Assembly: GCA_037441385.1 (NCBI GenBank)
Contig: JBBISH010000106.1
Span: 1 to 22,064, forward strand
DNA from: Myxococcales bacterium
GTDB lineage: Bacteria; Myxococcota_A; UBA9042
Direction: 5' to 3'
DNA length: 22,064 nt
This document shows, piece by piece, positions 1-22,064 of this stretch. A program made the translations under genes and the position numbers. A model generated the notes under the pieces. The model ran no database searches and was not told the DNA's origin. It worked only from the letters and a program-made list of their open reading frames with translations. Numbering within the stretch: position 1 is the stretch's first letter; each line of letters begins with the position of its first letter.

Positions 1-98
1 ATTCTTCGGGCCCGAACCGGGGTCCCCGCCTGATTCTCGCCGGTTGCAGACCGGGTCAGAGGAACCGTACAGGCGTGAATCAGACGGGGTTCGTATTA
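1..98 (+). mobile_element. Family B MITE-like element, copy 1 (left part cut off by the window edge); ends ...GGGGTTCGTA followed by TTA
   Basis: 1-69 matches 21996-22064 with 2 mismatches and aligns without gaps to the reverse complement of 20064-20161. The flanking TTA (96-98) is the TAA stop codon of the minus-strand gene. Confidence 0.85.
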
Positions 99-3000: not shown

Positions 3001-4088
3001 TTGATGGTGTGACTGGCCAGGTCGCAGCAGGTGCCCACGGTGCAGCAGTTGGTCTTGGGCGCAAACGAGCAGATGCCCGTGGTCGCGTTGCAGGTGCCGC
3101 CCGAGCAGGGGTCGGTGGCGCCGCAGTCGGCGTCGGTCTTGCAGCAGCCGGCCTTGGCGGTGCCCACGCAAGTGCCCTTGGCGTCGCAGGCATCGCCGCT
3201 GGTGCACGACAGGCCGTCGTCGCAGGCCGTGCCGGTCTTGGGCGTCCAGGCGTCTTGGGCCTTGCTGGGGTCGCAGGTCATGCAGGTGTTGTCGTCCAGC
3301 TCGCCGGCGATGTGGCAAGTGCCCTCGATGGCGCAGAACCCGGTCTGGATCTTGCTGGCGCAGGCGCCGGTCTTGCTGTCGCAGCTGTCGGTGGTGCAGG
3401 CCAGGCCATCGTCGCAGGTCTTGGCGGTGTGGCCACACCCGGAGCTAGTGCACTTGTCGGTCGTGCAAGCGTCAAAGTCATTGCAGTCGGTGTCGGCCTT
3501 GCAGCAGGCGCCGGTGCCGACGTGCTTGCAGGTGCCGCTGGCGCACGAGTCGGTGGTGCACGGATCGAAGTCGTCGCAATCCTTGTCGACCTTGCAGCCT
3601 GCGCTGGCGGCGCACAGGGTGGCGTAGTCGTCGCAGCAGTCGCCCGAGTCGGTGCAGTAGCTGTCGCACTGGCAAGGGGCTTTGGCGTCGTACTTGTCGC
3701 AGCGGTCCTTGCACGAGGCGGCGACCACCACGCTGTCGCTGCCGTCGGCCTTGGTGTCGACCTTGACGTCGGGTTCGATCGTCGTGTCAGCCACTTCGAT
3801 GATCTGCACGTCGACGGGCTCGGTCGTGTCCTTGGCGCTGGTGTCGGTGGAGCCGCCGGTGTCGGTCGTGCCGCCCGTGTCGCCGGGCTTGGAGGTGTCG
3901 CCGGGCTTGGCGCTGTCGTTGCTCTTGCCGTCGCCAAACGAGGTGTTGACGTCCTGGCCCGCGCTGTCTTGGACGGCTGCGGTGCCGGGCGACTGCGCGG
4001 GATCGCCGCAGGCGCAAGCCAGGGTGACCCAAAGCGCCGCAGCGGTGGCAAGGCGGAAGTGCTGGGCACGAATCGGAAGACGCAACAT
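96..4088 (-). CDS. Large Cys-rich secreted/lipoprotein (~1330 aa): three somatomedin B-like modules, CDDxxxCTxDxC repeats, five ~80-aa CC...WxxW repeats and two PPC-like beta-sandwich modules
   Basis: Long ORF with GC-rich codon usage. ATG at 4088 is preceded by GAGG and followed by a hydrophobic signal with lipobox-like LACAC. Motifs SCKDRC..CQCDSYC..GDCCDDY..C, CYCDALC..GDCCSDF and CWCDGYC..GDCCLD are visible. Confidence 0.9.
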   Translation of the reverse strand: MLRLPIRAQHFRLATAAALWVTLACACGDPAQSPGTAAVQDSAGQDVNTSFGDGKSNDSAKPGDTSKPGDTGGTTDTGGSTDTSAKDTTEPVDVQIIEVADTTIEPDVKVDTKADGSDSVVVAASCKDRCDKYDAKAPCQCDSYCTDSGDCCDDYATLCAASAGCKVDKDCDDFDPCTTDSCASGTCKHVGTGACCKADTDCNDFDACTTDKCTSSGCGHTAKTCDDGLACTTDSCDSKTGACASKIQTGFCAIEGTCHIAGELDDNTCMTCDPSKAQDAWTPKTGTACDDGLSCTSGDACDAKGTCVGTAKAGCCKTDADCGATDPCSGGTCNATTGICSFAPKTNCCTVGTCCDLASHTIKAAGTACGSTAIQVDYACNGNLAQKRDGLPGCDGKTGIGCLKTAEGLSWTAWKTLATCTAIQKCVQNAGAPPTCESAIGPCSKDADCDDKDPCTDDGCVNATCSNLPKKCPGGATCQVGVCDPSTGACGLGVADNNCYIDNTCLASGAKHPTDGCLTCQPTKSQTAWSLTSTCTCTTGVCCNATTGKIQPQGTSCDTAVKATEYSCSTDGTVVQTRTATQGCTGKSNTCSTSASNYSWTAWAPFKTCGANTTCEVTDPTVAGTCKAGADPLCGQADKYEVGTTAKTAYNLGTFADDAADLTLNPQLLMGGNDDVDFVRYTITDGANTKAPTVKLTWSGAGTAKVCAYYACSAGAGGNTCKAVICPSGSTSDSNADVSGVAGNGCCMTGQTGTLTWNPAPSTGTDATGTVYVSVTNTAGKCQQVSLTATMGVAAATPCTPGSKCCTADGNFAAQGTACGTTTVAAEYKCDSTAQGGKILQRKAVQGCLGTSTTCSTAAANYAWSDWAPIQTCAANEVCNVTAVDQPGTCKTVSVCAAGSTCCTSTGTWAAAGTACGTKAAQLEYKCSGTGLGASAQVRKGYGGCSGSSATCSTATSSLVWSGWSSYQTCGSSQLCVAGASATVPPTCQTPPADLCGSTDPNYGTTSLSAPKDLGTFSDSAAAQWMAPKVALASDTDKDFFKYKITDDFNMNDPTVSVTWTATKPVTVCAYYQCLAGPNGTDCDPITCPSGSTSYINPAVSTVDPNGCCMDATSGTLAFSVNAPGTMNEDGYVHFNVKNKTGSGCQQVAVKLAFGGSTTPQCDPTTSCCADNGTWAAKGTACGAVVKSEYQCSKTSAGGIMQKRDIKGTCGGSSSTCSTSTTTAGAWNTALACNSSEFCATPDPSAAGICVTPGAGSCGGACGGKSKDGTCYCDALCAAVGDCCSDFGGKCGGSCTGACGSQSTAGVCWCDGYCSQNGDCCLDKAAKCGN

Positions 4089-4200
4089 GAAGGCCTCTTT
4101 GCAGACGGGCGGGGCAGGCGAGCCCCGCAGCATGCTGCGCTGCGGGGCGGCGGATCGCAATCGCAATTTGCGGCGCTGTGTCACGGCGAGGTGGCGAGAC

Positions 4201-4219
4201 TCATACGGGGTTCGTATCA
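4201..4219 (+). repeat. Minimal family B derivative: TCA-TACGGGGTTCGTA-TCA
   Basis: ACGGGGTTCGTA is identical to the family B right end (84-95). The 13-bp core starts with TAC and is flanked by a direct TCA/TCA repeat. Confidence 0.5.
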
Positions 4220-4366
4220 GGCGGGGTTCGCTGGGCACCACACGCAGCCGTGACATTCGCGCTAGCCGCATCACTTGGCGGGCATGGACCGGTTGTCTAG
4301 ACTGCTCGCGGCTGGTGGGGCCGGACCGCGCGTGCGCGGATTGGCCGCCAATTGCGGGGGCAACAA

Positions 4367-6943
4367 ATGAACAGGACTGTGCTATCTGGATGGATGGCCG
4401 CGCTGGCCATCGCCGGTTGTGGTACGCCGACCTCGACGTCGAGCACCTGGAGCACCGTGACCGGCGACGCCACGGCAGACGGTGGCGACAGCACGGTCGC
4501 GGCGGCCGACGGCGAAGACATCAAGCAGGTCGAAATCATCGTCTACAAGCCCGATGCGAGCGCCGAGACCGCCGAGGCCGATGCCCCGCTTGTGGATGCG
4601 CCGGAGCCCGACACCGCCGCGCCCGACACCGCCGCGCCCGACACCGCCGCGCCCGACGCCGCAGACCCCGATGCCGTTGCACTCGATATCGCCGCCCCCG
4701 ACACGGCTGCGCCCGACACGGCCGACGACGCGGTGGCCCAGCCGTGCGCGGTCAACTGCAACGACGGCGATCCGTGCACCATCGACCTGTGCCAAGGCAG
4801 CAGCTGCAGCCACAGCCCGGCGCCGGCGTGCGGGCCGGCCAGCCCCTGCAGCGGCAGCAAGGACTGTGCCAAGGGCTTGGTGTGCAACACGGCGAGCCAC
4901 ACCTGCGTGGTCTGCAGCGAGAATGCGGACTGCGGCAGCGGCGCCTGGTGCGACCAAGGCCAGTGCCACAGCGCGGTCGCGTGCAAGTCCGACACCGACT
5001 GCAAGGCGGCCAAACAAGTCTGCAACAAAAGTGCGGGTGTGTGCGTCGCCTGCCTGAGCAGCAACGACTGCGCCGCCAACGAGGCGTGCAAGAATTTTGC
5101 CTGTCTGCCCGTCAAGGCGTGCAAGTCCAGCCTGGACTGCCCGCAGGTTTGCGACGCGGTGCAGGGCGTTTGCGTGGCGTGCGCCACTTCGGATGATTGC
5201 CCGGCGGGCAAGTTCTGTAGCAACAATCAGTGTTTGCCGGATGTGTGCAGTGCTCCGGGCTGTGCCGGTGGCGCCGCGTTCACCTGCAACAGTGACGGCG
5301 GCGGCTATGCGGCCGGGCAGAGCTGCGACGACGGCAGCCCCTGCACCAACGACACCTGCCAAGCCGGCATCTGCACCTGGATCGCCGCCGGCCTGGGCAA
5401 CTGCGACGATGGCAATGCCTGCACCAGCGGCGACTCGTGCGCGGGCGGCAAGTGCGCCGGGACCGTCGTGAACTGCGACGACAAAAACCCTTGCACGGCG
5501 GATAGCTGCGACCCCAAGCAGGGCTGCCAGCACGCCGCGGCCGCGGGAACCTGCGACGACGGCGACTCGTGCACCACCGCCGACACCTGCACGGCCGGCA
5601 AGTGCGCCGGCACCCCCAAGGTCTGCGACGACAGCAACGAATGCACCGACGACTCGTGCAAATTCGGCGTCTGCGTCTTTACCAACAATAGCGCCCCGTG
5701 TGGCTCCAGCAGCACGTGCAGCGTCTGTTCGGGCGGCAAGTGCACGGCGGGCCTGAGCAAAGGCGCCAACATGGTGGTGGGTCCCGGCTTTGAGGTGCGC
5801 TCGGCCTTGCCGATCGCCGGCGGCGGCTACAGTGGTGCGGGTTCGGTCCAGCTCGACGTGGCCAGCGGCGGTCACGGCGGCAGCGACGGCTGGCTCGTCC
5901 TTGTCTCACCATCGGGCTACCCCACCGGCTCGTTCGCCTACGGCGGGCCCGGTAACGACCGCTTTGACGGCCACTTGGCCACTCAGGGTGGCTACTTGCT
6001 CTACGGCAGCGTCGCGGCGGGCACTAGCAGCGCCGGATACCTGGTCCGCACCAAGGCTGACGGCAAGAGCCTGTGGGAGTGCGTCTTTCCCGACGGGGAC
6101 CAAGCGGTCGAGGGCCACCGCGCCGTAGCCGTAGCCAAGGGCTGGGTCCTTGGCGGCACCGTCTATGCCAGCACCCTGCAAGGCTGGCTGGGCGGCGTTG
6201 ACGCCAATGGTGGCAAGCTGTGGAGCGTAGCCGTGCCCGCCATGACCGGGGTGGGCGGCCTGGCCGTGTGGCCCGACGGCAGCCTGGCGGTGGCGGGATT
6301 GGGCTCGGGCGGCAACTTGGTGGTCGCCCACGTGTCGGCGGACGGCGCAATCTTGGGGAGCACCGCCGTCTTGGCCGCGACCGCCATCGCGGACGCCACG
6401 CTGAGCGTGGCCGGCGAGTTGGTGGTGTACGGCAGCTACACCAGCGGCGGCGGCGGTCTGGCGGCCTTTGACAGCGGCGGCAAGTCGCTGTGGAGCAAGA
6501 GCTTCCCCGTCGCTGATCTGGAGTCGCTTGGGCGCGTCACCGCAGGTCCAAACGGTGGCTTTGTGGTGAGCGCCACGGTCAAGACCAGCTCGGGCGGGCT
6601 CGACGGCTGGCTGGCGGGCCTGGACGCGGGCGGCGCGCTCGCCTGGTCGCACAACTACGGCGGGTTGAGCGACGACCCGTTCTACGGCGTGACGAACGTG
6701 GCCGGTCGTCTGTACGTTGCAGGCAGCACCAAGCTGCTCAGCGCGACCGCCAACGCCTGGATATTCGACCTGAACGAGGTGGGCATGATGGGCTGCAAGT
6801 GCACCAGCGATCCGGGCTGCGCCGACGCGAACGCCTGCACCTACGAGTTCTGCAATCTGGGCCTGTGCTACTCGTTCAACAACGCCGCGGGCACGGCGTG
6901 CGGCACGGGCGGCAAGTGCGACGCCAATGGCGTTTGCAAGTAG
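4367..6943 (+). CDS. Cys-rich lipoprotein (~858 aa): acidic PDTAA linker, many Cys repeats and a C-terminal beta-propeller-like region
   Basis: ATG at 4367, signal ending in lipobox IAGC, repeated CDDGxxCTxDxC motifs, and repeated 'W(L/V)xxxDxxGxxxW' blade-like motifs in the C-terminal half. Confidence 0.9.
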   Translation: MNRTVLSGWMAALAIAGCGTPTSTSSTWSTVTGDATADGGDSTVAAADGEDIKQVEIIVYKPDASAETAEADAPLVDAPEPDTAAPDTAAPDTAAPDAADPDAVALDIAAPDTAAPDTADDAVAQPCAVNCNDGDPCTIDLCQGSSCSHSPAPACGPASPCSGSKDCAKGLVCNTASHTCVVCSENADCGSGAWCDQGQCHSAVACKSDTDCKAAKQVCNKSAGVCVACLSSNDCAANEACKNFACLPVKACKSSLDCPQVCDAVQGVCVACATSDDCPAGKFCSNNQCLPDVCSAPGCAGGAAFTCNSDGGGYAAGQSCDDGSPCTNDTCQAGICTWIAAGLGNCDDGNACTSGDSCAGGKCAGTVVNCDDKNPCTADSCDPKQGCQHAAAAGTCDDGDSCTTADTCTAGKCAGTPKVCDDSNECTDDSCKFGVCVFTNNSAPCGSSSTCSVCSGGKCTAGLSKGANMVVGPGFEVRSALPIAGGGYSGAGSVQLDVASGGHGGSDGWLVLVSPSGYPTGSFAYGGPGNDRFDGHLATQGGYLLYGSVAAGTSSAGYLVRTKADGKSLWECVFPDGDQAVEGHRAVAVAKGWVLGGTVYASTLQGWLGGVDANGGKLWSVAVPAMTGVGGLAVWPDGSLAVAGLGSGGNLVVAHVSADGAILGSTAVLAATAIADATLSVAGELVVYGSYTSGGGGLAAFDSGGKSLWSKSFPVADLESLGRVTAGPNGGFVVSATVKTSSGGLDGWLAGLDAGGALAWSHNYGGLSDDPFYGVTNVAGRLYVAGSTKLLSATANAWIFDLNEVGMMGCKCTSDPGCADANACTYEFCNLGLCYSFNNAAGTACGTGGKCDANGVCK
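4606..4725 (+). repeat. In-frame 15-bp tandem repeat, 8 units (PDTAA-like)
   Basis: GCCCGACACCGCCGC occurs three times exactly (4606-4650), followed by five degenerate units. Confidence 0.9.
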
Positions 6944-6974: not shown

Positions 6975-7255
6975 CCCGCCTTACCGGATAACTGCTAGCA
7001 CCCTAAGTGTATTGGAAACCTGTGCGAACCGCGGCACTTGGCCCTCACCCCGCCGCCTGCGGCGGCAGCCCCGCTCTCCCGGCGCCGCTGGCGCCACTCG
7101 TTCGCATCGCTCACCGCGGGGATTCCAACGCTGTGGGCGAGGGGCAATGCAATTTCCCTTTACTCCTCGCCCACTTCAGTGGGAGAGGGGTCGGCCGTAG
7201 GCCGGGGGTGAGGGCCATTCGACGCGGCGGCAGAGTAGGCAACCGGCAAGGCAGG
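6975..7255. mobile_element. Family A MITE, copy 1 (281 bp)
   Basis: Ends CCCGCCTTACCGG...CCGGCAAGGCAGG, flanked by AGATTGCG (6967-6974) and AAATTGCG (7256-7263), a 7/8 TSD match. Highly similar to 15436-15719. Confidence 0.85.
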
Positions 7256-7265
7256 AAATTGCGGA

Positions 7266-7390
7266 CCTGCGCCTGAACCTGAACCAGGGGCCCCCACGTG
7301 CCCGAAGGGATGGGCGAGTCCAGTGGACTCGGCCAAGTGGGGACCTGAACCCGAACCTGACCCTGACCCTGACCCTGAACCGTACCCGAT
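7266..7390 (+). repeat. Hexamer tandem tracts (CCTGAA/CCTGAC) flanking a hairpin
   Basis: CCTGCG CCTGAA CCTGAA on the left and ~8 units at 7344-7390 on the right. The centre has CCCCAC...GTGGGG arms and a CGAGTCCA-G-TGGACTCG stem. Confidence 0.8.
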
Positions 7391-7512
7391 CCTACACAAC
7401 CACGGGTACGAGCGGGCCTCTGGCCCGCGACCTCTCCGTCCCCTGGCCAAGCCCCGCGCCCCGTGCTACCACGCCACCAACGGCCGCAGCCCACGCGGCC
7501 CAAAGGCCGCCC

Positions 7513-10892: not shown

Positions 10893-11044
10893 CTGGGCGC
10901 ATCGCCGCGAGCGCGGCGACCCGGCCACGAGTTTGGGCACGGCAAGTCCTGCGCAAATCGCGACCCCTTGGCCCAAACCGGCGCATGGCGCCGCCCTGCG
11001 GGTCCGTGTCCGTTGCGCGGTGGCCCGCTGGCGCGGGCCGGCCG
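10893..11044 (+). repeat. Family C structured repeat, copy 1 (152 bp; related AT-rich tail to ~11154)
   Basis: Aligns with 14409-14560 and with 15383-15435 + 15728-15832. Internal stems TCGCCGCG/CGCGGCGA and GTTTGGGC/GCCCAAAC. Confidence 0.9.
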
Positions 11045-11187: not shown

Positions 11188-14100
11188 TTACGGACACTTG
11201 GTGAACCCTTGGTCCGTGGTGCGCACCACCTGCCACGCGAAGTCAGGGTAGCCCCCGGGGCCGACCGCCGCCGCTGCATCCCAGCCCGAATTGCGCCGCA
11301 AGAGTGCCATGTTCGTGCCCTGACCACTGGCCAGGAGCTCGACTTGCCACTTCCAGCCCGTCCCTGTGGAGACATAGACGTCGCCGCGCCAATCGCTGGG
11401 CTGCTTGCCGATGTGGACCACCCCAGCGTGCCAATCGCTGCCGCTGCCGGCCAGGGCGGTGACATGGCCGCTCTGCGCGTACATCCCAGACGAAGCAAGC
11501 TTGCCGGTGGCGTCGATTTGGCCGATGAACGCCTCGGCCTCGTAGCCGTCCGGCGTGCCGGAGTGGCCCGCGGCGAGCCAGCTTTTGCCCTGGGACCGCA
11601 GCACCCGCAACCGCAACGTCATTGGCCACATCGGCATTTGCCAGAGCGCACTGCCGGTGGAGTTCACGCCCACCACGGTCGCGCTGATCCAATCGGTGCC
11701 AGGCAAGTCCATCGGCACGGCGATCGCGGCCGCCAGGTTGCCCTGCGGGTCGCTGGCCAGGCTGTCGACCCGCACGGCGTTGAGCACATTGAGCATTTGC
11801 GTCCAGACGACCTTGCCCTGACCGGTGCGCTTTTGCAGGAACGCCTGCCCGCCCAGACGCCCGCCCACCACGTAGCCGCCGGTGCAGGGCGTTACGGCGT
11901 CGCCCAGGGTGACGCCGCCCATGCTCTCGGTTTGGACTTGGCCCGAGCCGTCGAGTGTGGGCCAGCGCACGATCAGCAGCTGGTTCGCCGCGGAACCGAC
12001 CCCGACCAGGCTGCCGTCGGCCAGCTGGGCGGTCGCCCGCAGCTCGGCCGAGCTGAGTGGCGAGGCGATCGTTTGCTCGGACAGCACGTTGCCGCCGTGG
12101 TCCAGCGCGACCACCGTGGGCACTTGCGCGCCCGCCGACCCGGCGCTGCCCACCACCGCCAGCCCGTCGTCGGGCAAGGCAAACAGGCCAACAATCGTCC
12201 CGGTTTTCTGCGGCAAGAGCAGCCGGGCCCACACCGACGGGTAGCCGCACTTGCCCTGGCTGCAGGTGTCGCCCAGCGTGCACGCAATGCTGTCGTCGCA
12301 GGGTGTGCCGTCGGCCGCCTGGGCGTGGCTGCAGCCGTCCGGGCCCAGGCACGTGTCCACGGTGCAGGGGTTGCCGTCGCTGCACGGTGCCTTGTCGGCA
12401 GGACCGTCGCACGCGCCGTCGGTGCACAGGTCGCCTTTGGTGCAGGGATTGCCGTCGTCGCAGGGCGCGCCGTTGGCGATGGGGTAGTGCACGCAGCCCT
12501 GGCTGGGGTTGCAGCTGTCGGCGGTGCAGGCTAGGCCGTCGTCGCACTGCGGCAGGGTGGGCGCGCAGCCACCACTGGGCGCGCACGTCGCGGGCGCGCA
12601 GGGGCCGTTGCCTGCGCAGTTGGTCGGGACCAGATCGCCGCACGCCCCCGCGGCCAGGCAGCCGTCGTGGCCCCACGAGTCGGCCCGGAGCCAAAGCACT
12701 TGCGCAACCCCGGCTTGCACGTCGGTGTCGGTCCACATCCAGCCGGTGCCGCGCGGGTACAAGTGCTTGGCGTTGGCGTTCGAGAGCGCTGCCTTGGTGT
12801 CCCAGAGTACCCCGCCGTCGGCGTCCACCAGGAGCAACCGCGCCGCGCCCCAGCCCTGCGTGGACCCCAGCACCGCGACCTGGCCGTTCGCCAGCGGCCA
12901 TAGGCTGACCACCGCTCCTGGCAGGGCGGCCTGGCTGCGCCACTGCAGCTGGTCGTCCTGACCAAATCGAAGGACCAGCGGGTGAATTCCGCCGTTCGTC
13001 GCCACCTCGCTGGCCGCCCACCAGCCCCCCGCGTCCGCGCCAAGGGCGTTGAACTGGCCAAACTTGGCCAGGGGGAAGGTGTGCTGGCTGACCACGCTGC
13101 CATCCGCGGCCATCCGCCAGACCAGGGTGCTGGAAGGATAGATCTTCCCGCCACTTACCTCGCGGCCGATGCCGGTGACCAGGACGGTGCCGCTGGCTTC
13201 GGCCGCCATGGCCAGGGCGGTGGACCACACGCTTTGCCCCTTGCCCACGGCCACGGGGGCGCCCAGCTCGGACGCGCCCAGCAGCTCGCCCGCGGCCGTC
13301 AGGCGAATGAGTTGGCTGGGTTCCGCGGGGGAGTAGCCCCGCTCCAGCACCCACAGGTCGCCGTTGGGGCGCGTCACTGCGGTGGAGGTCTCGCCCAGGC
13401 CGACGGCGGTGACCTCCTTCTCCCAGACTACCTGGCCGGCGGCGCTGATGCGGGCCGCCCACGGCCGGACCGAGGTGGATTGGCCCGGCGCAAGCGGCGT
13501 CAAAGCCGCCTGCCCCACCACGTAGTAGCCGCCGTCTGGGCCGGCTAGGCTGCCGGCGACCCCGCCGCCGTCGCCCAACTTCCAGTCGATCTCCCAGCTG
13601 GGGGTGCCGCTGCCGTCCACGCGCTTGCACCAGGCCGAGCCGGCATTCGGCGGCCAGGTCTTGCTGCCCACCGCCACGGCGCCGCCGTCTTCGAGCGGCA
13701 GGACGTGCCCTTGATCGCCGGGGCCCATGGCCAACGGCCCCAGCGCGCCGCTGCCGCATTGGCCCCATTGGCAGCTGTTGCCTTGCGTGCAGGCGGTGTT
13801 GTCGCTGCACGGTGTGCCGGCCGCGGCCGGGCTGTGCACGCAGCCCATGCCGGCGACGCACTGATCCACCGTGCAAGAGTTGTTGTCATCGCAGTTCCAG
13901 GGGTTGCAGCTGGTGGGGCCGCCGTCGGGACCGGGCCAGTTTTCCTCGATCAACGTGTCGGGAGAAAAGGTGTCTGGCCCGCTATCGGGCGGCGGCTTGG
14001 TCGGCCCAACATCGGGATAACCGGGCGGATCGGTGTGAGGGACATCGGGGCCCCACTGCGGACTGCCGCCGTCGGGGACATCGGCCGGTGGCGCGGCGGC

Positions 14101-14289
14101 GTCGATTTCGCCAGCGGCCACCTCAGCCGTCGCCGAGGACGAGACGTCGGCCAAGCCACCACTTGGGGCACTGCCCGCGCAGCCAGCCAGGCCGACGACG
14201 GTGGCCGCTGCAGCAAGACAGCGACGCGCCTGCCACGGACCGGCGAAAATCGAGTGTGGCCCGTGCGACCATTGAGCAGGTCTAGCCAT
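11188..14289 (-). CDS. Large lipoprotein (~1033 aa): Pro/Asp-rich linker and two beta-propeller-like regions separated by Cys-rich repeats
   Basis: Long ORF with lipobox GLAGC, CDDxxxCTxDxC repeats, and two similar blocks beginning LPLEDGGAVAVGS and FALPDDGLAVVGS. Exact start uncertain. Confidence 0.88.
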   Translation of the reverse strand: MARPAQWSHGPHSIFAGPWQARRCLAAAATVVGLAGCAGSAPSGGLADVSSSATAEVAAGEIDAAAPPADVPDGGSPQWGPDVPHTDPPGYPDVGPTKPPPDSGPDTFSPDTLIEENWPGPDGGPTSCNPWNCDDNNSCTVDQCVAGMGCVHSPAAAGTPCSDNTACTQGNSCQWGQCGSGALGPLAMGPGDQGHVLPLEDGGAVAVGSKTWPPNAGSAWCKRVDGSGTPSWEIDWKLGDGGGVAGSLAGPDGGYYVVGQAALTPLAPGQSTSVRPWAARISAAGQVVWEKEVTAVGLGETSTAVTRPNGDLWVLERGYSPAEPSQLIRLTAAGELLGASELGAPVAVGKGQSVWSTALAMAAEASGTVLVTGIGREVSGGKIYPSSTLVWRMAADGSVVSQHTFPLAKFGQFNALGADAGGWWAASEVATNGGIHPLVLRFGQDDQLQWRSQAALPGAVVSLWPLANGQVAVLGSTQGWGAARLLLVDADGGVLWDTKAALSNANAKHLYPRGTGWMWTDTDVQAGVAQVLWLRADSWGHDGCLAAGACGDLVPTNCAGNGPCAPATCAPSGGCAPTLPQCDDGLACTADSCNPSQGCVHYPIANGAPCDDGNPCTKGDLCTDGACDGPADKAPCSDGNPCTVDTCLGPDGCSHAQAADGTPCDDSIACTLGDTCSQGKCGYPSVWARLLLPQKTGTIVGLFALPDDGLAVVGSAGSAGAQVPTVVALDHGGNVLSEQTIASPLSSAELRATAQLADGSLVGVGSAANQLLIVRWPTLDGSGQVQTESMGGVTLGDAVTPCTGGYVVGGRLGGQAFLQKRTGQGKVVWTQMLNVLNAVRVDSLASDPQGNLAAAIAVPMDLPGTDWISATVVGVNSTGSALWQMPMWPMTLRLRVLRSQGKSWLAAGHSGTPDGYEAEAFIGQIDATGKLASSGMYAQSGHVTALAGSGSDWHAGVVHIGKQPSDWRGDVYVSTGTGWKWQVELLASGQGTNMALLRRNSGWDAAAAVGPGGYPDFAWQVVRTTDQGFTKCP

Positions 14290-14408: not shown

Positions 14409-14560
14409 CTGGGCGCATCGCCGCTGCCGCGGCGACCCGGCCACGAGTTTGGGCGCGACAATTCACGCCAAAATCGGAGCGACTTGGCCCAAACCGGCGC
14501 GCGGCGCCGCCCTGCGGGTTCGTGTCCGTTGCGCGGTGGCCCGCTGGCGCGGGCCGGCCG
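14409..14560 (+). repeat. Family C structured repeat, copy 2 (152 bp)
   Basis: Same length as and high identity to 10893-11044. Confidence 0.9.
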
Positions 14561-15382: not shown

Positions 15383-15832
15383 CTGGGCGCATCGCCGCGG
15401 GCGCGGCGACCCGGCCACGCGTTTGGGCACGGCAACCTGCCTTACCGGATAGCTACTAGCACCCTAGTTCTATTGGAAACCTGTGCGAACCGCGGCACTT
15501 AGCCCTCACCCCGCCGGCGCCCGCCCCGCTCTCCCGGCGCCGCTGGCGCCACTCGTTCGCTTCGCTCACCGCGGGGACCCCTCCTCTCCCAACGCTTTGG
15601 GCGACGGGCAATGCAATTTCCCTTTACTCCTCGCCCACTTCAGTGGGAGAGGGGTCGGCCGTAGGCCGGGGGGGAGGGCCATTCGACGTGGCGGCAGAGT
15701 AGGCAACCGGTAAGGCAGGCACGGCAAGTCCTGCGCAAATCGGAGCGACTTGGCCCAAACCGGCGCACAGCGCCGCCCTGCGGGTGCGTGTCCGTTGCGC
15801 AGACGCGGCGTGGCCGACGCGATCGAATTTCG
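15383..15832 (+). repeat. Family C repeat, copy 3, interrupted by family A MITE
   Basis: 15383-15435 and 15728-15832 rejoin to match the uninterrupted copy at 10893-11057. Confidence 0.88.
15436..15719. mobile_element. Family A MITE, copy 2 (284 bp), 22-bp TIR and perfect 8-bp TSD
   Basis: CCTGCCTTACCGGATAGCTACT ... AGTAGGCAACCGGTAAGGCAGG, with CACGGCAA duplicated at 15428-15435 and 15720-15727. The empty site is visible at 10938-10945. Confidence 0.93.
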
Positions 15833-15986: not shown

Positions 15987-17918
15987 CTACGGCACCGAAC
16001 CCCCAGCCGCCAACTTCCGCACCAGTTCGTCCAGCGGCGCGTAGCCGGTCTGCGCGTTGGGCGTGACCCGCCGGCCGTTCACGAACACGGTCGGCGTCCC
16101 CTGGACCCCCGCAAACTTCGCCATGGTTTCTGCGCTCTGCAGCACGGCGTCATAGCGGTCGCGCTCCATCGCCTCGCGCCACTCGGCCGGGTTCAGCCCG
16201 GCCTGGGCCACCGCGTCGGCGATGGTGTCTTCGCTCAGGCCGCGCGCCATTCCCAGCCCCACCAGCCGTGGGTGCAGGGTCTCGAACTGGCCCTTGCTCC
16301 AGGCCAATTGCGCCGCCACCGCCGCCGGCCGGGCCATGGCATGGAAGCTCAGCGGCATCGGCGCCCACACCAGCTGGACCTGCCCGGTGCTCCGCCACTT
16401 GGGCCACCACATGCCCAGCTGCGTCGCCAGCTGCACGCAGTAGGGGCACTGGTAGTCAAAATAGACCACCACTTCCACCTTGGCTTTCTCGGGGCCCTGG
16501 GTCGGCACGCCTTGCGGCCGCGCCTGCACCACGTCGTCGGCCAGCAGCCCGACTTCCTTGCCCTGCGCTACCGCCTGCTGGTAGCCGCTTTGGCCGCGCC
16601 AGCCGGCCGCTTTGGCCCGCTCTAGTTCTTGCTCCACCACCGCCTCGAAGCTCGCTTGCGGCAGCGCGCCCAGAATTCGCCGCCCATTGATGTAGACCGT
16701 GGGGGTACCGTCGGCGCCGGCCTTGTCGGCGGCGTCCATGTCGGCCTCGATCTGGGCGGCCAGGCGGGCGTCGCTGCGGTCGCGCTGCCAGCGCGCCACG
16801 TCCACGCCCACCGCTTTGGCGATCTCGGCCAGGCGGCCGTCGTTCAGGTCCTTGGGATCCTCGTAGACTTTGTCTACAAACTCCCAGAACTTGCCTTGCT
16901 TGCCGGCCGCCAGCGCCGCCAGGTGCGCGCCCACGGCCTGCTTGTGGAACGACATGGGCAGGTGCTTGAACACCTCGCGGATCTGACCCGGAAAGCGCTG
17001 CTTCAGCGCCGCCACGGTGGGCCGCAGCTTGTTGCAGTACGGGCACTGCAGATCGCCAAAGGTGACCAGCGTGACCGCGTAGTCCGGGCTGTCGCTCCGC
17101 TGCATGTCCACGGCGGGATCCACCGGCACTTTCCAGATGGTCTTTAGGTTTTCCGGGTGATCTTCGGGGTCTTCGGCCTTGGGGGCCAACTTGGGCGGCG
17201 GCGGTTCCACACCCAGCAGCAGGTAGTCGGCGACCTTGGCGCCTTTGCCTGGGGCATGGCGCTCCCACGCCGCCCGCGGCGGTTCGCCCGGCCTGGGCGC
17301 GTCCTTCAGCGCCGCCTTCACGGCTTCTTCAAAGGCGTCTTGCGGCTGGGCGCCCACCACCAGCGCGCCGTTCACAAAGATCGACGGCGTCCCCGTCACC
17401 CCTAGCGCCGTCAGCGCCGCCACCTGGTCCGCGATCGCCTTCTCGGCCGCCGGCCCGTCTTGATCGCGGACCAATTGCACCCGGTCCAGCCCGAGTTTTG
17501 CGCCGATCTCGTCGTACAGGTCCGGCCCCAGGCGGTCGCGCGCCGCCAGCAGGGCGTCGTGAGCCTCCCAAAACCGCCCCTGCTTGTGCGCGGCCCAGGC
17601 GAACTTGGCCGCCGGCATGGCTTGGCCGTGGAAGGGCAGGGGGAAATGCACATACCCCACCCGCACTTCCTTGGGGTGGGCCGCGCGCACCGCCTCGATG
17701 GTCGGCGCCACTCGGCTGCAGAATGGGCACTGGAATTCGCTCGCCACCAGCAACGTCACGGGCGCGTTGCTGGGCCCGCGGAACGGGATATCGCCAGCCA
17801 CCACCTGGGCTTGCGCCGGCAGCGCCCACAGCACCGCCAGCTGAATCGCCAGGACCAGCAGTCCCAGCCACAGAGGCTGCGGGCGGTCAACGGAGCGGAA
17901 GTTCGTCTTGAGTGGCAC
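15987..17918 (-). CDS. Secreted DsbA-family thioredoxin-fold oxidoreductase with three tandem CxxC domains
   Basis: EFQCPFC, DLQCPYC and DYQCPYC, each followed by a PLxFH-type motif and a GTP cis-Pro loop. Signal peptide ends AQA. GTG at 17918 has a GAGGA RBS (alternative ATG at 17951). Overlaps the ppk1 3' end. Confidence 0.92.
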   Translation of the reverse strand: MPLKTNFRSVDRPQPLWLGLLVLAIQLAVLWALPAQAQVVAGDIPFRGPSNAPVTLLVASEFQCPFCSRVAPTIEAVRAAHPKEVRVGYVHFPLPFHGQAMPAAKFAWAAHKQGRFWEAHDALLAARDRLGPDLYDEIGAKLGLDRVQLVRDQDGPAAEKAIADQVAALTALGVTGTPSIFVNGALVVGAQPQDAFEEAVKAALKDAPRPGEPPRAAWERHAPGKGAKVADYLLLGVEPPPPKLAPKAEDPEDHPENLKTIWKVPVDPAVDMQRSDSPDYAVTLVTFGDLQCPYCNKLRPTVAALKQRFPGQIREVFKHLPMSFHKQAVGAHLAALAAGKQGKFWEFVDKVYEDPKDLNDGRLAEIAKAVGVDVARWQRDRSDARLAAQIEADMDAADKAGADGTPTVYINGRRILGALPQASFEAVVEQELERAKAAGWRGQSGYQQAVAQGKEVGLLADDVVQARPQGVPTQGPEKAKVEVVVYFDYQCPYCVQLATQLGMWWPKWRSTGQVQLVWAPMPLSFHAMARPAAVAAQLAWSKGQFETLHPRLVGLGMARGLSEDTIADAVAQAGLNPAEWREAMERDRYDAVLQSAETMAKFAGVQGTPTVFVNGRRVTPNAQTGYAPLDELVRKLAAGGSVP

Positions 17919-20250
17919 GGTGTTCCTCGTGGTGTTCCTCGGGATGGTCATGGGTGCGGATCTCGCCGCGCAACAGCGCCTCTTGCAGCGAAAAGGGCTC
18001 CGTGTCGGGCAGTTCGCGCGCCGGCCGCCAGCTGCCGTCGGGCTGCAGCAGCCAGGCGCCCAGGGTGTCTTCCAGCGCCGCCTCCAGGCATTCGCGCCGC
18101 ACCCGCCGCCGCAGCTCGGGGTCGTCGATGGGGAACGCGGCCTCGACGCGCCGGTGCAGGTTGCGCTCCATCCAGTCGGCGCTCGAACAGTACAGGGTGT
18201 CCGACGCGCCGAACCACCACACCCGCGCATGTTCCAGGAATCGCCCCACAATCGAGCGCACCCGGATGTGGTCCGACAAACCGGGCACGCCCGGCACCAG
18301 GCAGCAAATGCCGCGGATGATCAGGTCGATCTGCACACCCATCTGCGAGGCGCGGTACAGGGCGCGGATGATGGTCGGCTCGGTCAGGGCGTTCATCTTG
18401 GCGACGATGCGCCCGCGCAGCCCGGCCTTGGCCAGTGCCGTCTCGTGCTCGATACGACGCAAGATCTCGATATGCATCGTGAACGGCGACTGGAGCAGCC
18501 GCTGCAGGTGCCGCACGCTGCCCAGCCCGGTCAGGGTCAAGAACAGCTGGTGCACGTCTTCGGTCAGCACCTCGTCCGCGGTCAGCAGGCTGATGTCGGT
18601 GTACAGCCGCGCCGTGGCGGGGTGGTAGTTACCTGTGCTCAAGTGTGCGTAACGTCTGACTTTATCCGCCTCGCGCCGCACGATCAGCATCATCTTGGAG
18701 TGGGTCTTGTGGCCCACCACGCCGTAGACCACGTTGGCGCCCGCGTCCTGCAACTCCGTGGCAAAGCTGATGTTGTCGGCCTCGTCAAAGCGCGCCCGCA
18801 GCTCCACCACCGCGGTCACGTCCTTGCCGGCCCGCGCCGCCTGGACCAGCGCCTTCACGAACGGCGAACTGGGGCCAGTTCGGTACAAAGTCTGTTTAAT
18901 TGCAAGAACATCGGGATCCATGGCGGCTTGCCGCAACAATTCGATCACCGGCGCCGCCGAGTCGTACGGATGGTGCAAAAGCAGTGTTTGCTGACGCAGG
19001 ACGTTGAAAATACTTCCTTTAGACTCCAGGGCCTTGCCGTCTTTCACCTTGCCGTGCAGCGCTTTGGGCAGGCGCGGCACCAGCGGCGGCCAGCGCAAAT
19101 CCGGGCGCTCGGCCAAATCCGCGATCGCCGCCAGGCGGTGCAGGTTCACTGGGCCTGGGCAGCGATACAAGTCCATGGAATCAAGCTCGAATTCCGAAAG
19201 GAGGAACTTGGCCAACTCTGGCGTGCAGCCCTCGCCCACCTCGATGCGCACGGCGTCGCCGTCGTTGCGGCGCGTCAGTTCGCCCTTCATCGCCTCTAGC
19301 AGGTCGTCGGTCTCTTCCTCGGCCACAAACAAGTCAGAATCGCGGGTTACGCGAAACGGCACGCAGCCTGTGACCGCCATGCCTGGGAACAACTCGCCCA
19401 CAAAGCGCTGCACCACGCTGGACAGCAGCGTCAGCGCCCGGCCCACACCATCGCCGGGCTGCGGCATCCGCAGCACGCGCGGCAGGACCCGCGGCACCTG
19501 CACGATGGCGATCCCAGACCGCCGGCCAAAGGCATCCGGACCGTCCAGGCTGACTACCAGCACCAGGTTCTTGTTCTGCACGTTGGGGAACGGGTGCGCC
19601 GGGTCCAGGCCAATCGGCGTCAGGATCGGTAACACGTTGGCACGAAAGTACTCTTGCGCCCAGGTGGCCTGCGCCGGGCTCCACTGCTCCGGCGGCAGCA
19701 GCACGATGCCTTCGCGCGCCAGTTCGGGCAGCAGTACTTCTTGAAGGACCCGATATTGTTCAGCTACCAGGCGGTGCACCTCTTCGGCGATGCGATCCAG
19801 CACTTCTTGCGGGCCCAGCCCGTCCAAGGTGTGGGTCGCCACGCCGTAGGCCACCTGCTGCTGCAGCCGCGACACGCGAATCTCGAAGAATTCGTCCAGG
19901 TTCGACGACGAGATCGCCAAGAACTTCAGCCGCTCCAGCAGCGGCACCCGCGTGTCCAGGGCCTGCGCCAAAACCCGCCCATTGAACGCCAGGCGGCTCA
20001 ATTCGCGATTGAGGAACGGACGCCGCAAGTTGCGCTCGGGATTGGCCTCGTCCAGGTTGCCGCTCATACGCACCCCACCTGATTCACGCCTATACGTTTC
20101 TTCTGACTCGCTGTGCAACTGGCGAGAGTCAGGCGGGGACCCCGGTTCTGGCCCCGAGAATTGCCCGAGTTTTCGACCCGATTCGGACGGAACTGCTGTC
20201 AGGGCCGGCAACACGCCCGAATTGCGGCTGGCTGCGGGGGAATCGCTCAT
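17887..20250 (-). CDS. ppk1: Polyphosphate kinase 1
   Basis: Motifs NRELSxLxFNxRVL, PLLERLKFLAISSSNLDEFFEIRV, DPAHPFP, LHHPYDS, IKQTLYRT, ELRARFDE, KTHSK, STGNY, GRFLEH and SSADWMERNL. Start is either ATG 20250 (includes the family B insert) or ATG 20067. Confidence 0.97.
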   Translation of the reverse strand: MSDSPAASRNSGVLPALTAVPSESGRKLGQFSGPEPGSPPDSRQLHSESEETYRRESGGVRMSGNLDEANPERNLRRPFLNRELSRLAFNGRVLAQALDTRVPLLERLKFLAISSSNLDEFFEIRVSRLQQQVAYGVATHTLDGLGPQEVLDRIAEEVHRLVAEQYRVLQEVLLPELAREGIVLLPPEQWSPAQATWAQEYFRANVLPILTPIGLDPAHPFPNVQNKNLVLVVSLDGPDAFGRRSGIAIVQVPRVLPRVLRMPQPGDGVGRALTLLSSVVQRFVGELFPGMAVTGCVPFRVTRDSDLFVAEEETDDLLEAMKGELTRRNDGDAVRIEVGEGCTPELAKFLLSEFELDSMDLYRCPGPVNLHRLAAIADLAERPDLRWPPLVPRLPKALHGKVKDGKALESKGSIFNVLRQQTLLLHHPYDSAAPVIELLRQAAMDPDVLAIKQTLYRTGPSSPFVKALVQAARAGKDVTAVVELRARFDEADNISFATELQDAGANVVYGVVGHKTHSKMMLIVRREADKVRRYAHLSTGNYHPATARLYTDISLLTADEVLTEDVHQLFLTLTGLGSVRHLQRLLQSPFTMHIEILRRIEHETALAKAGLRGRIVAKMNALTEPTIIRALYRASQMGVQIDLIIRGICCLVPGVPGLSDHIRVRSIVGRFLEHARVWWFGASDTLYCSSADWMERNLHRRVEAAFPIDDPELRRRVRRECLEAALEDTLGAWLLQPDGSWRPARELPDTEPFSLQEALLRGEIRTHDHPEEHHEEHRATQDELPLR
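20064..20201 (-). mobile_element. Family B element, complete diverged copy (132-bp core plus TGA/TGA flanks) within the ppk1 5' region
   Basis: The reverse complement aligns without indels to the composite of 21956-22064 and 1-98, and is flanked by TGA on both sides on the minus strand. Confidence 0.85.
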
Positions 20251-20310
20251 CGGCAAAGGTCGCGCGGAACACCGCCGTCCTTGGCCAGTCTAGACCATTT
20301 GGGGGCGTAA

Positions 20311-20500
20311 TACGAACCCTGGCCGCTCCTCGCCCAGGCAGCGTCCGTCGCCGCGGCCCTTGGCTTCCCACCCGCTCCGTGGTCCTGCGCCCGCCTTGCG
20401 GCCCTAGCCGACGGCAAGCTTGGGGCGCGCCGGCCCGCTCCAATCTCGTGGATTCCCGCAGGATGCCTGCGCGGATGCCTGGACTTGGCCAAGGCTTGCA
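20311..20500. mobile_element. Degenerate ~190-bp hairpin element with a family B-like end
   Basis: Begins TAA-TACGAACCC, the reverse complement of the B right end. The far end GGCCAAGGCTTGCA matches the expected GGCCAGGGTTCGTA at 10/14, all mismatches transitions. Inner arms CCAGGCA..GTCCG / CGGATGCCTGG. Confidence 0.5.
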
Positions 20501-20536
20501 GACCCATAGGGGATATGCCACACTCGGGTGTCGCCA

Positions 20537-20562
20537 GCCTTGACTTCTACCGGCGTCAAGGC
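20537..20562. promoter_or_regulatory. Dyad GCCTTGAC-N10-GTCAAGGC, candidate operator
   Basis: Perfect 8-bp inverted repeat between divergent ppk1 and the wHTH gene. A TAAAAT -10-like hexamer lies at 20590-20595. Confidence 0.45.
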
Positions 20563-20615
20563 ATTCCCCAATCCGCGACCTTTGGCCGGTAAAATGTTGT
20601 TTCTCGGGAGGAAAC

Positions 20616-21365
20616 ATGCCAGCACATGCACAGGTGTCCGCGCGCACCGTTGGACTCAGTCCGGCCAAACCGGCCACAGAAGGGGGCGATTCCGCGCGCG
20701 CACCCCGCGTCTTGGGTCCACGTGTGGGGACCATCGAGAGTGAGCGCAAAGTCATCGCCTACTTCTTGGAGCAGACCGCCGCTACCGGCTACAAGTGCAC
20801 CACTTTGCAGGAAGTGGCCGACGCGGTGGGGGTGACCAAAGAAGCCCTGCGGCTCCGCGTGGATACGTTGCGGGCCGACGGCCGGATGCGCCGCGAGCCC
20901 TGCTGGTGCGCGGCCGTCAACACGCCGCATGTGCGGTTCTTTACGCCCAGCGTGACCCTGGACGCGCTGCCGCCCGCCGCCAGCCGTGCTACCCCGGCCG
21001 CGGTGCCTGCGGTGGCTCCTTCGTCCGAGCGGCCGGCCGTCGCAGTCGCCAAACCGGTAGCCGCGCCCGCTCGCACGACGGTGGTAAGTGGCCGTCAGAT
21101 CAAGCAGTTGCTGCCCGCGCACCCCGACACCTGGGCGCTGTTCCGCGTCGCCGGTGCCGTATGGCGCGACCCTGTCGTGGCTTGGGGCGTGTGGGACGAA
21201 GTGGACGGGGGCCAGGTGCGCTCGGCCTCGGGTCCGCTGGTGTTTGGCGGTACTGAACTGGAACCGGCTGCCGCTTCGCCTGGCTATGTGGGCGTGCGCA
21301 TTGGGGCCTACCGCTGCTTGGATGGCAAGCGCAGCTTTGACGACGGCAAAGGCGCAGAAAACTAG
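20616..21365 (+). CDS. LexA-like winged-HTH protein with an Ala/Pro linker and a C-terminal domain of unknown function
   Basis: GGAGG RBS at 20607-20611 and ATG at 20616. VIAYFLEQTAATGYKCTTLQEVADAVGVTKEALRLRVDTLRADGRMRREP parallels the LexA DNA-binding domain. No clear S24 peptidase motifs follow. Confidence 0.7.
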   Translation: MPAHAQVSARTVGLSPAKPATEGGDSARAPRVLGPRVGTIESERKVIAYFLEQTAATGYKCTTLQEVADAVGVTKEALRLRVDTLRADGRMRREPCWCAAVNTPHVRFFTPSVTLDALPPAASRATPAAVPAVAPSSERPAVAVAKPVAAPARTTVVSGRQIKQLLPAHPDTWALFRVAGAVWRDPVVAWGVWDEVDGGQVRSASGPLVFGGTELEPAAASPGYVGVRIGAYRCLDGKRSFDDGKGAEN

Positions 21366-21400
21366 CCAAGCCGGGCGAATTCAGCCAGCCCCAACGTCCA

Positions 21401-21586
21401 CCCCGATCCGCCGCTTTGGGCGCAACTCGGCGTTGCTGCGTCGTCCCAGCTACGGGTTGCCCCACTGGGGCGACCCGTTCACCCTTCGGGCGACCGCTGG
21501 GGCCCTTCTCCCTGCGGCGACCTCTAGGTCGCCTCAGTCGCTCCGTTCCTTGCACCTTGGTTTGCATCCCAAATCGGCGGCCGGGG
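21401..21586. repeat. Large multi-branched palindromic element
   Basis: Outer arms GCCGCTTTGGGCGCAA / TTGCATCCCAAATCGGCGGC. Inner stems ACGGGTTGCCCCA-C-TGGGGCGACCCGT and GGCGACCT-CT-AGGTCGCC. Confidence 0.7.
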
Positions 21587-21676
21587 CGAATTTCGATGGT
21601 GGATCCTGGTCCAGTCGCCGGGCATCGGGCTTGTGCAAAGCAACTCGCTCGGTCGCGTGCGCGCGGAGCGGTGCTT

Positions 21677-21958
21677 CCTGCGTTACCGGTTAGCGACAGT
21701 AACACGAATAGTCCGTATTGTTGTGACGTTGGCCGCATGAGCCCTCACCCCGCCGCTACGCGGCACCCCGCTCTCCCGGCGCCACTGGCGCCACTCGCTC
21801 GCTTCGCTCACCGCGGGGACCCCTCCTCACCCAACGCATTGGGCGATGGGTAACTATTGATTTATCAATAACAACCCTCTCGCCTGAGCGGGAGAGGGTG
21901 GACGGCACCGCCGGCCGGGTGAGGGGGCCAAGCCGTGACCACTGTCGGCATCCTGTAA
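21677..21958. mobile_element. Family A MITE, diverged copy 3; right TIR interrupted by family B
   Basis: Left TIR CCTGCGTTACCGGTTAGCGACAGT. Core 21741-21850 is close to 15502-15610. The right TIR ACTGTCGGCATCCTGTAA stops at TAA, where family B begins. Confidence 0.8.
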
Positions 21959-22064
21959 TACCAGTTCCGTCCGAATCGGATCGAAGACTCGGGCAATTCT
22001 TCGGGCCCGAACCGGGGTCCCCGCCTGATTCTCGCCGGTTGCAGACCGGGTCAGAGAAGCCGTA
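21956..22064 (+). mobile_element. Family B element, copy 3 (right part cut off by the window edge)
   Basis: TAA-TACCAGTTCCGTCCGAATC... The left end is an imperfect inverted repeat of the right end seen at 76-95. Confidence 0.85.

Follow-up and report, generated by a model that had tools for sequence, protein, structure and literature searches.

How does a polyphosphate kinase gene come to carry 135 additional nucleotides in its coding sequence, and where does translation begin once they are in place? In a Myxococcales bacterium with a genome of 6.6 Mb and 67% GC, ppk1 lies on contig C106, which constitutes the whole stretch of DNA analysed here (22,064 nt; hereafter the window). A first-pass annotation had proposed that a frame-preserving element similar to the Rickettsia palindromic elements (RPEs) entered the gene and either added 45 residues to PPK1 or provided it with a new start codon and ribosome-binding site. 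The evidence collected below leads us, with considerable confidence, to the following overall reading: a non-autonomous element that duplicates T-N-A has been tolerated in the N-terminal tail of PPK1, and was perhaps moved by a resident insertion sequence (IS).

An in-frame insertion in the coding part of ppk1

With the insert, ppk1 spans positions 17,887–20,250 of the minus strand and encodes 787 amino acids; all four PPK Pfam domains are preserved, the first starting at residue 79, and the protein also exceeds the TIGR03705 cut-off. On the same strand, a MITE-like core of 132 nt (20,067–20,198) is flanked by two copies of the target TGA. The 5’ copy (20,199–20,201) covers positions 2 and 3 of ppk1 codon 17 together with position 1 of codon 18, and the 3’ copy is located at 20,064–20,066. 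The family consensus ends in TAC…GTA, and in this copy the left-hand TAC has decayed to CAG. The net gain of 135 nt provides 45 codons (20,065–20,199; PPK1 residues 18–62), which read TAVPSE…GGVRM without a stop in the ppk1 frame and gave no match in a Pfam search. Excision of the 135 nt in silico restores a continuous frame of 742 amino acids that is colinear, without gaps, with the ortholog from the related genome G005 over the first 353 residues. The insertion of a 135-nt element in frame within the coding part of ppk1 is thereby confirmed, including the restored frame described in the first-pass annotation. The same annotation described three stop-free, indel-free copies in the window; this holds for the ppk1 copy, which is the only complete one, whereas the other two are cut by the contig ends, such that both flanks and the full length can be read in neither. 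These partial copies lie on the plus strand at 1–95 (core positions 38–132) and 21,959–22,064 (core positions 1–106). The former is followed by the flank TTA at 96–98, corresponding to the TAA stop codon of a minus-strand open reading frame (96–4274), and the latter is preceded by TAA at 21,956–21,958.

The PPK1 ortholog of G005 lacks the element, and its 35 residues ahead of the sequence NRELS equal the 17 and 18 residues found on either side of the insertion in the excised allele. Eleven of the first 17 residues, encoded at 20,200–20,250 in the window, are identical between the two proteins, and divergence is biased to third codon positions. Given this match of the N-termini, the ATG at 20,250 is the ancestral start, and the insertion took place within coding sequence. 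The expected empty allele was thus recovered as an element-free ortholog, yet without a base-exact empty TGA, since the site reads CTG CCC in G005 rather than CTG AGC. No ppk1 ortholog was found in a second relative, G007, whose genome is 81% complete.

Among 11 orthologs, the N-terminal segment of PPK1 ranges from 18 to 54 residues, and similarity to solved structures begins at residues 77–79, after the insert. An AlphaFold model retains an intact kinase fold (pTM 0.75) and assigns pLDDT values below 50 to residues 1–75, inserted residues included, for which the shallow alignment of 12 sequences may be partly responsible. Modelling and alignment suggest that the insert sits in a variable, unstructured N-terminal tail ahead of the kinase fold. 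The insertion was probably near-neutral, because either of the two possible products discussed below keeps the entire enzyme.

A scan for promoters and terminators over 19,900–20,700 returned none. A -10-like hexamer, TAGACT, is present on the minus strand at 20,287–20,292, about 40 nt upstream of the ATG at 20,250, where G005 carries TAAACT; it was missed by the promoter scan. Just upstream of ppk1 (20,308–20,319, minus strand), GGGTTCGTA followed by TTA resembles the right end of the element; BLAST of the genome with the adjoining sequence gave no other match, and this segment is possibly a relic of the element or a chance resemblance. Directly downstream of ppk1, a protein with three DsbA/thioredoxin domains is encoded at 15,987–17,918 (minus strand), with a called start that overlaps the end of ppk1. 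The window further contains large cysteine-rich proteins that carry repeats of the Somatomedin B or Dictyostelium type (96–4274, minus; 4352–6943, plus; 11,188–14,289, minus), and repeats of this kind also end many contigs of the assembly. Between genes, at positions 6990–7400, 10,893–11,044, 14,409–14,560, 15,383–15,826, and 21,400–21,950, the window holds at least three further families of dispersed repeats, partly nested in one another and with approximately 10–50 genome hits each.

A repeat family that duplicates T-N-A

The element is abundant in its own genome, with 369 BLAST hits and 426 nhmmer hits, of which 283 are near full length. A length of 132 nt was found in 214 of the 283, followed by 131 and 133 nt, and a deletion form of 65 nt with matching TNA flanks adds a net 68 nt. 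The fixed length in multiples of three that the first-pass annotation anticipated is therefore the prevailing one, but the 131-, 133- and 65-nt forms depart from it. Its prediction of TNA duplications was borne out: among 140 copies of exact length, 95 have TNA on both sides, and the two flanks are identical in 85 of these (shuffled flanks: mean 30.2, maximum 46 in 10,000 trials). A host repeat documents the event itself: over 20 of its copies are empty and show TCA once, and in 10 others the element follows this TCA, seven times in one orientation and three times in the other. These filled and empty alleles establish a net gain of 135 nt and a duplication of TNA rather than TA.

Nearest neighbours among 211 copies show a median identity of 96%, with seven identical pairs, which indicates that some of the amplification is recent. 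At 89% identity to the family consensus and 93% to its nearest relative, and with its left end decayed, the ppk1 copy is older. The element has a GC content of approximately 60% and short, imperfect terminal repeats: as read from the consensus, perfect agreement is limited to TAC…GTA, and some 10 of the 19 outermost positions agree, a symmetric GANTC at positions 15–19 among them. GANTC motifs at element positions 15–19, 69–73, and 114–118 are present in 132, 183, and at least 176 of 196 copies, respectively. The predicted fold is two-armed in the consensus and in five of six copies, while a copy from G007 pairs only five terminal bases; fold energy z-scores range from -1.4 to -2.8 in six copies and amount to -0.89 for the ppk1 copy. 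An Rfam search with the element produced a single chance match to a miRNA (E 0.79).

Outside its own genome, the family is narrowly distributed. Among 36 other genomes of the taxonomic family, G007 contains many copies and G001 one decayed copy, and a draw of 400 genomes from the phylum, with two candidates scored per genome, matched in G007 only. The G007 copies, a set chosen by peptide search, are also 132 nt long. Scanning for the end pattern recovered at least one further locus with a full 132-nt copy among genome contigs (L057, which we do not count as an independent genome) and no match among metagenome contigs. When the 45-residue peptide was compared with 1.84 billion representative proteins, one match was obtained, a 205-residue open reading frame that begins with the same peptide.

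Together, these observations show that the element constitutes a non-autonomous, MITE-like DNA family of 132 nt that duplicates T-N-A. The family has apparently been undescribed until now, as the first-pass annotation suspected; a search confined to openly available papers gave no account of it among the matches listed.

Tolerated gene fusions and the reading frame

To place the copies relative to genes, we used a home-made Markov-model caller on the element-excised genome and dropped five overlapping copies, leaving 278. Of these, 195 are intergenic, 62 fall on stop codons and five on start codons, and 16 lie within called genes; the intragenic copies comprise 11 in the phase of ppk1 (10 of them open), three in phase 0, and two in phase 2. 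By comparison, 5,027 of 6,000 random TNA sites (84%) are genic and 3,817 share the ppk1 phase. A stricter local classifier recovered only one genic copy and missed both ppk1 and the CheA case described below; it was left out of the tally as too strict. Roughly 1% of frame-compatible genic landings seem to persist, to which target preference could contribute.

Two of the persisting copies split conserved domains. In the P4 domain of CheA (L030; contig C145, position 6272), a loop of seven residues in solved structures comprises 55 residues here, and in the HATPase_c domain of a hybrid histidine kinase (L029; contig C17, position 40,527) the in-frame copy occupies a loop between two strands, which is enlarged in a solved receptor as well. 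Relative to homologs and known structures, each domain is divided at a loop by about 45 residues. Neither G005 nor G007 yielded a close ortholog of the CheA gene. In G007, one of 22 copies examined lies in frame in a PAS-type sensor, the domain identity being read from the sequence. The remaining genic copies lie close to gene starts, occupy the linker of a kinase, or lengthen a C-terminus. A DsbA-like case on contig C67 was rejected as an internal insertion and is a C-terminal extension, since all three orthologs stop there. At two further loci, an in-frame copy apparently interrupts a signal-peptide-like N-terminus, namely in a large cysteine-rich protein (L036; contig C137, position 756) and in an ApbE-family protein (L037; contig C7, position 66,758). 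Another copy (L038; contig C49, position 17,203) is found on the TGA that ends a frame of 1166 amino acids for an MtrC/OmcA-like multiheme cytochrome; the approximately 1 kb of in-frame, coding-like sequence behind it may be a separate gene.

In sum, the element inserts at T-N-A with duplication of the three nucleotides, and one copy hit the TGA spanning codons 17 and 18 of ppk1, where the frame survives because the element is without a stop in either orientation in that phase. We propose that most genic insertions are purged, with survivors at positions where added residues harm little. The accumulation at gene boundaries would follow from the target itself, given that duplication of TGA or TAA keeps a stop codon and duplication of TGA rebuilds an ATG.

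Does the family go beyond tolerance, having been selected to preserve reading frames by virtue of its 45 codons, as in the RPE-like "coding MITE" of the first-pass annotation? The prevalence of the exact 132-nt length, in G007 as well, speaks for such a strategy, and so does the consensus, in which four of six frames are open (shuffle P = 0.035), including both phase-1 frames (P = 0.099). Unadjusted counts of stops also looked significantly low, with 24 versus 41 in frame +2 and 13 versus 33 in frame -2. When conditioned on position, however, the depletion is not specific to these frames (z = -1.4 for +2 and -2.4 for -2), as it is strongest in frame -1 (z = -3.0), which is already closed. Private mutations of the element display no codon periodicity (348/389/367), the 65-nt form with its net gain of 68 nt carries matching TNA flanks, and the 11 phase-1 genic copies among 278 compare with about 1,000 expected from the site ratio. 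We therefore regard the frame-preservation strategy as largely refuted and improbable. Far less likely still is an assembly artefact in which the repeat was mis-joined into ppk1. It is true that numerous contigs are broken at members of the family, C106 at both of its ends, and that the whole ppk1 copy is spanned by no single contig from the sequencing runs. Yet the ppk1 copy shares its exact sequence with no other, its duplication is perfect and its frame open; in addition, contigs from run X1, possibly the source sample itself, reach into the element from either side without a difference (33 and 27 element letters). No 135-nt skip was found among the joints listed for the sequencing runs.

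Start codon choice in ppk1 and coaX

The annotation correctly noted that the insertion creates a second ATG, at 20,067–20,065 on the minus strand, from the last A of the element and the TG of the duplication, and that the element supplies a Shine-Dalgarno (SD)-like sequence ahead of it (AGGTGGGG, 20,080–20,073). The SD duplex is predicted at -8.5 kcal/mol and beats that of 84% of called ATG starts. We think that ppk1 is, by a modest preference, still translated from the ancestral ATG at 20,250 and carries the 45 residues as a passenger. The element may instead have given the gene a new ribosome-binding site and start, such that translation begins mainly at 20,067 (726 amino acids) and the old 17 codons together with the element form a 5’ leader; we consider this possible, if somewhat doubtful. 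Both starts are plausible, and mixed use overlaps the two readings. In favour of the junction start, the native one has no SD match (0.4 kcal/mol), and initiation at 20,067 yields an N-terminus of 19 residues, within the range of the orthologs, while 20,250 would give 80 residues, more than in all 11 orthologs checked. Moreover, the junction ATG of 16 copies lies close to, and in frame with, the called start of a gene; in eight of these the element frame is closed. On the other side, AGGTGGGG occupies the 3’ arm of a predicted right-hand hairpin, and the identical combination of SD and ATG recurs far inside CheA and the histidine kinase; initiating mainly from it there would destroy the protein. 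The equivalent native start in G005 is devoid of an SD as well, which indicates that the native ppk1 start needs none. The ppk1 copy is also still open in its frame, a weak argument given an open frame in 184 of 206 non-genic copies as well.

Since both ends of the element read …GTA outward, duplication of TGA always yields an ATG, and a junction ATG is present at one or the other junction in 64 and 61 of the 278 copies. This ATG is a by-product of the terminal A and TGA, and it occurs within CheA and the histidine kinase as well. A different situation is encountered at coaX, encoding a type III pantothenate kinase (L042, positions 534–1451; contig C15), one of the eight genes with a closed element frame. 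Here, the element lies in an ATGA start codon and has a stop in its own frame, and the empty ATGA serves as the start of the orthologs from G005 and G007 (the latter protein being 99% identical). No type I pantothenate kinase was found at the cut-off in this genome. Since CoA is essential, coaX is presumably expressed, and if so its translation uses the junction ATG.

Candidate mobilisers

A transposase gene with TAC…GTA ends, for which the first-pass annotation had suggested a search, was not found, nor was an autonomous partner among pairs of end-profile matches 200–6000 nt apart in this assembly, which collapses IS copies. A DDE_Tnp_1 search gave two hits in the genome, neither linked to element ends. 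The genome does harbour an IS5-family element in about eight near-identical copies that are collapsed at contig ends; copies are seen at the ends of C84, C98, C146, C149, C156, and C216, and also of C89 and C158. Based on a C-terminal motif, besides a DDE_Tnp_1_2 match below the cut-off, we take this IS to be a member of the IS1031 group. Its ends begin with GAGGGTG, all 16 of them have TNA flanks, and six of the 16 abut the left end of a 132-nt element. Element flanks make up no more than about 4% of the non-coding TNA sites; six of eight copies would thus abut an element by chance with a probability of approximately 1e-7, assuming that the 16 ends represent eight copies. One IS copy is located at the same TCA of the host repeat. 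In the excerpted text of PMC12016507, the IS1031 group is described with TNA target preference and a 3-bp direct repeat, a likeness to our element that extends to the target sites shared with the resident, multi-copy IS.

Movement of the element in trans by this IS5-family (IS1031-like) transposase is a serious possibility, though one we hold tentatively: it would explain why about six of eight IS copies reside in the left flank of an element and one at a shared hot spot. Against it, the GAGGG ends of the IS differ from TAC…GTA, such that the element is no simple deletion derivative of it, and no match to the IS fragment was found in G007, a genome (81% complete) in which copies of the element are likewise numerous. 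A candidate alternative is that the IS merely uses the same safe sites. A bolder version, which we deem unlikely, holds that an IS1031-type transposase moves a MITE with dissimilar ends and that the element acts as a portable start and ribosome-binding site cassette with hairpin-coupled translation, having replaced the start of coaX and perhaps that of ppk1.

The element could also belong to the TA-duplicating, IS630-type elements such as ERIC, RUP or CIR, with TNA as a flank preference only. Its TA at both termini, two arms with a linker and conserved GANTC motifs do recall the Caulobacter CIR as portrayed in the accessible sections of PMC2229807. CIRs, however, are described there as never intragenic and closed in six frames, in contrast to the four open frames and TNA duplication of our element. 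The empty sites carry a single TCA and no TA, and the flanks are direct copies rather than complements (85 versus two of 95). GANTC is only about 4–6% below Markov expectation genome-wide. Profiles for DDE_3, DUF4096 and ISAzo13 had no match in G000 (the genome studied here) or G007, assemblies in which multi-copy IS are collapsed; for DDE_3 this again argues against an IS630-type origin, which we rate as highly improbable.

Discussion

The closest functional parallel to the ppk1 insertion is provided by the RPEs (Ogata et al. 2000, as summarised in later reviews), which measure 105–146 nt and of which nearly half of those first reported lie in open reading frames, according to the portions consulted of three reviews (PMC10969869, PMC2229807, PMC3184786). 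Our element resembles them, as characterised there, in size, in its open frames, and in being fused in frame to conserved genes where the fold is left intact, as seen in ppk1 and in the loops of CheA P4 and HATPase_c; the fusions are likely near-neutral, as reviewed for gmk. Their genic share of nearly half contrasts with 16 of 278 copies here. RPEs, as described, fold by pairing of their 5’ and 3’ ends, unlike the two-armed element, and their duplication is listed as "?", in contrast to the defined TNA.

Bacterial MITEs, as the same partial accounts portray them (Correia/NEMIS, ERIC, RUP, YPAL, BRE), are shorter than 200 nt, lack a transposase, duplicate their target, are mostly intergenic, and occur in long and short forms. 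Our element is likewise short and multi-copy, with a target duplication and no transposase. Most of these MITEs duplicate TA and are AT-rich, whereas the present family duplicates TNA, has about 60% GC, and ends in short, imperfect repeats. Fusions of MITEs and other repeats with open reading frames are noted at 5’ ends, at 3’ ends, and internally (PMC2229807; PMC3184786; PMC10969869, in the parts available), and nothing decisive for the comparison was contained in the corresponding parts of PMC5756416 and PMC6382973. The element is thus MITE-like and of a known kind, with occasional RPE-like fusions.

While no new class of biology emerges here, the ppk1 locus offers an example of RPE-like peptide insertion from a high-GC, free-living organism, with a clean element-free ortholog. 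It also allows tolerance to be quantified, with survivors in loops and tails. For annotation, the element creates false N-terminal extensions and breaks contigs. The piling of IS copies onto its flank is a concrete lead to the transposase, and coaX presents a testable case of a mobile element that rebuilds start codons and supplies a ribosome-binding site.
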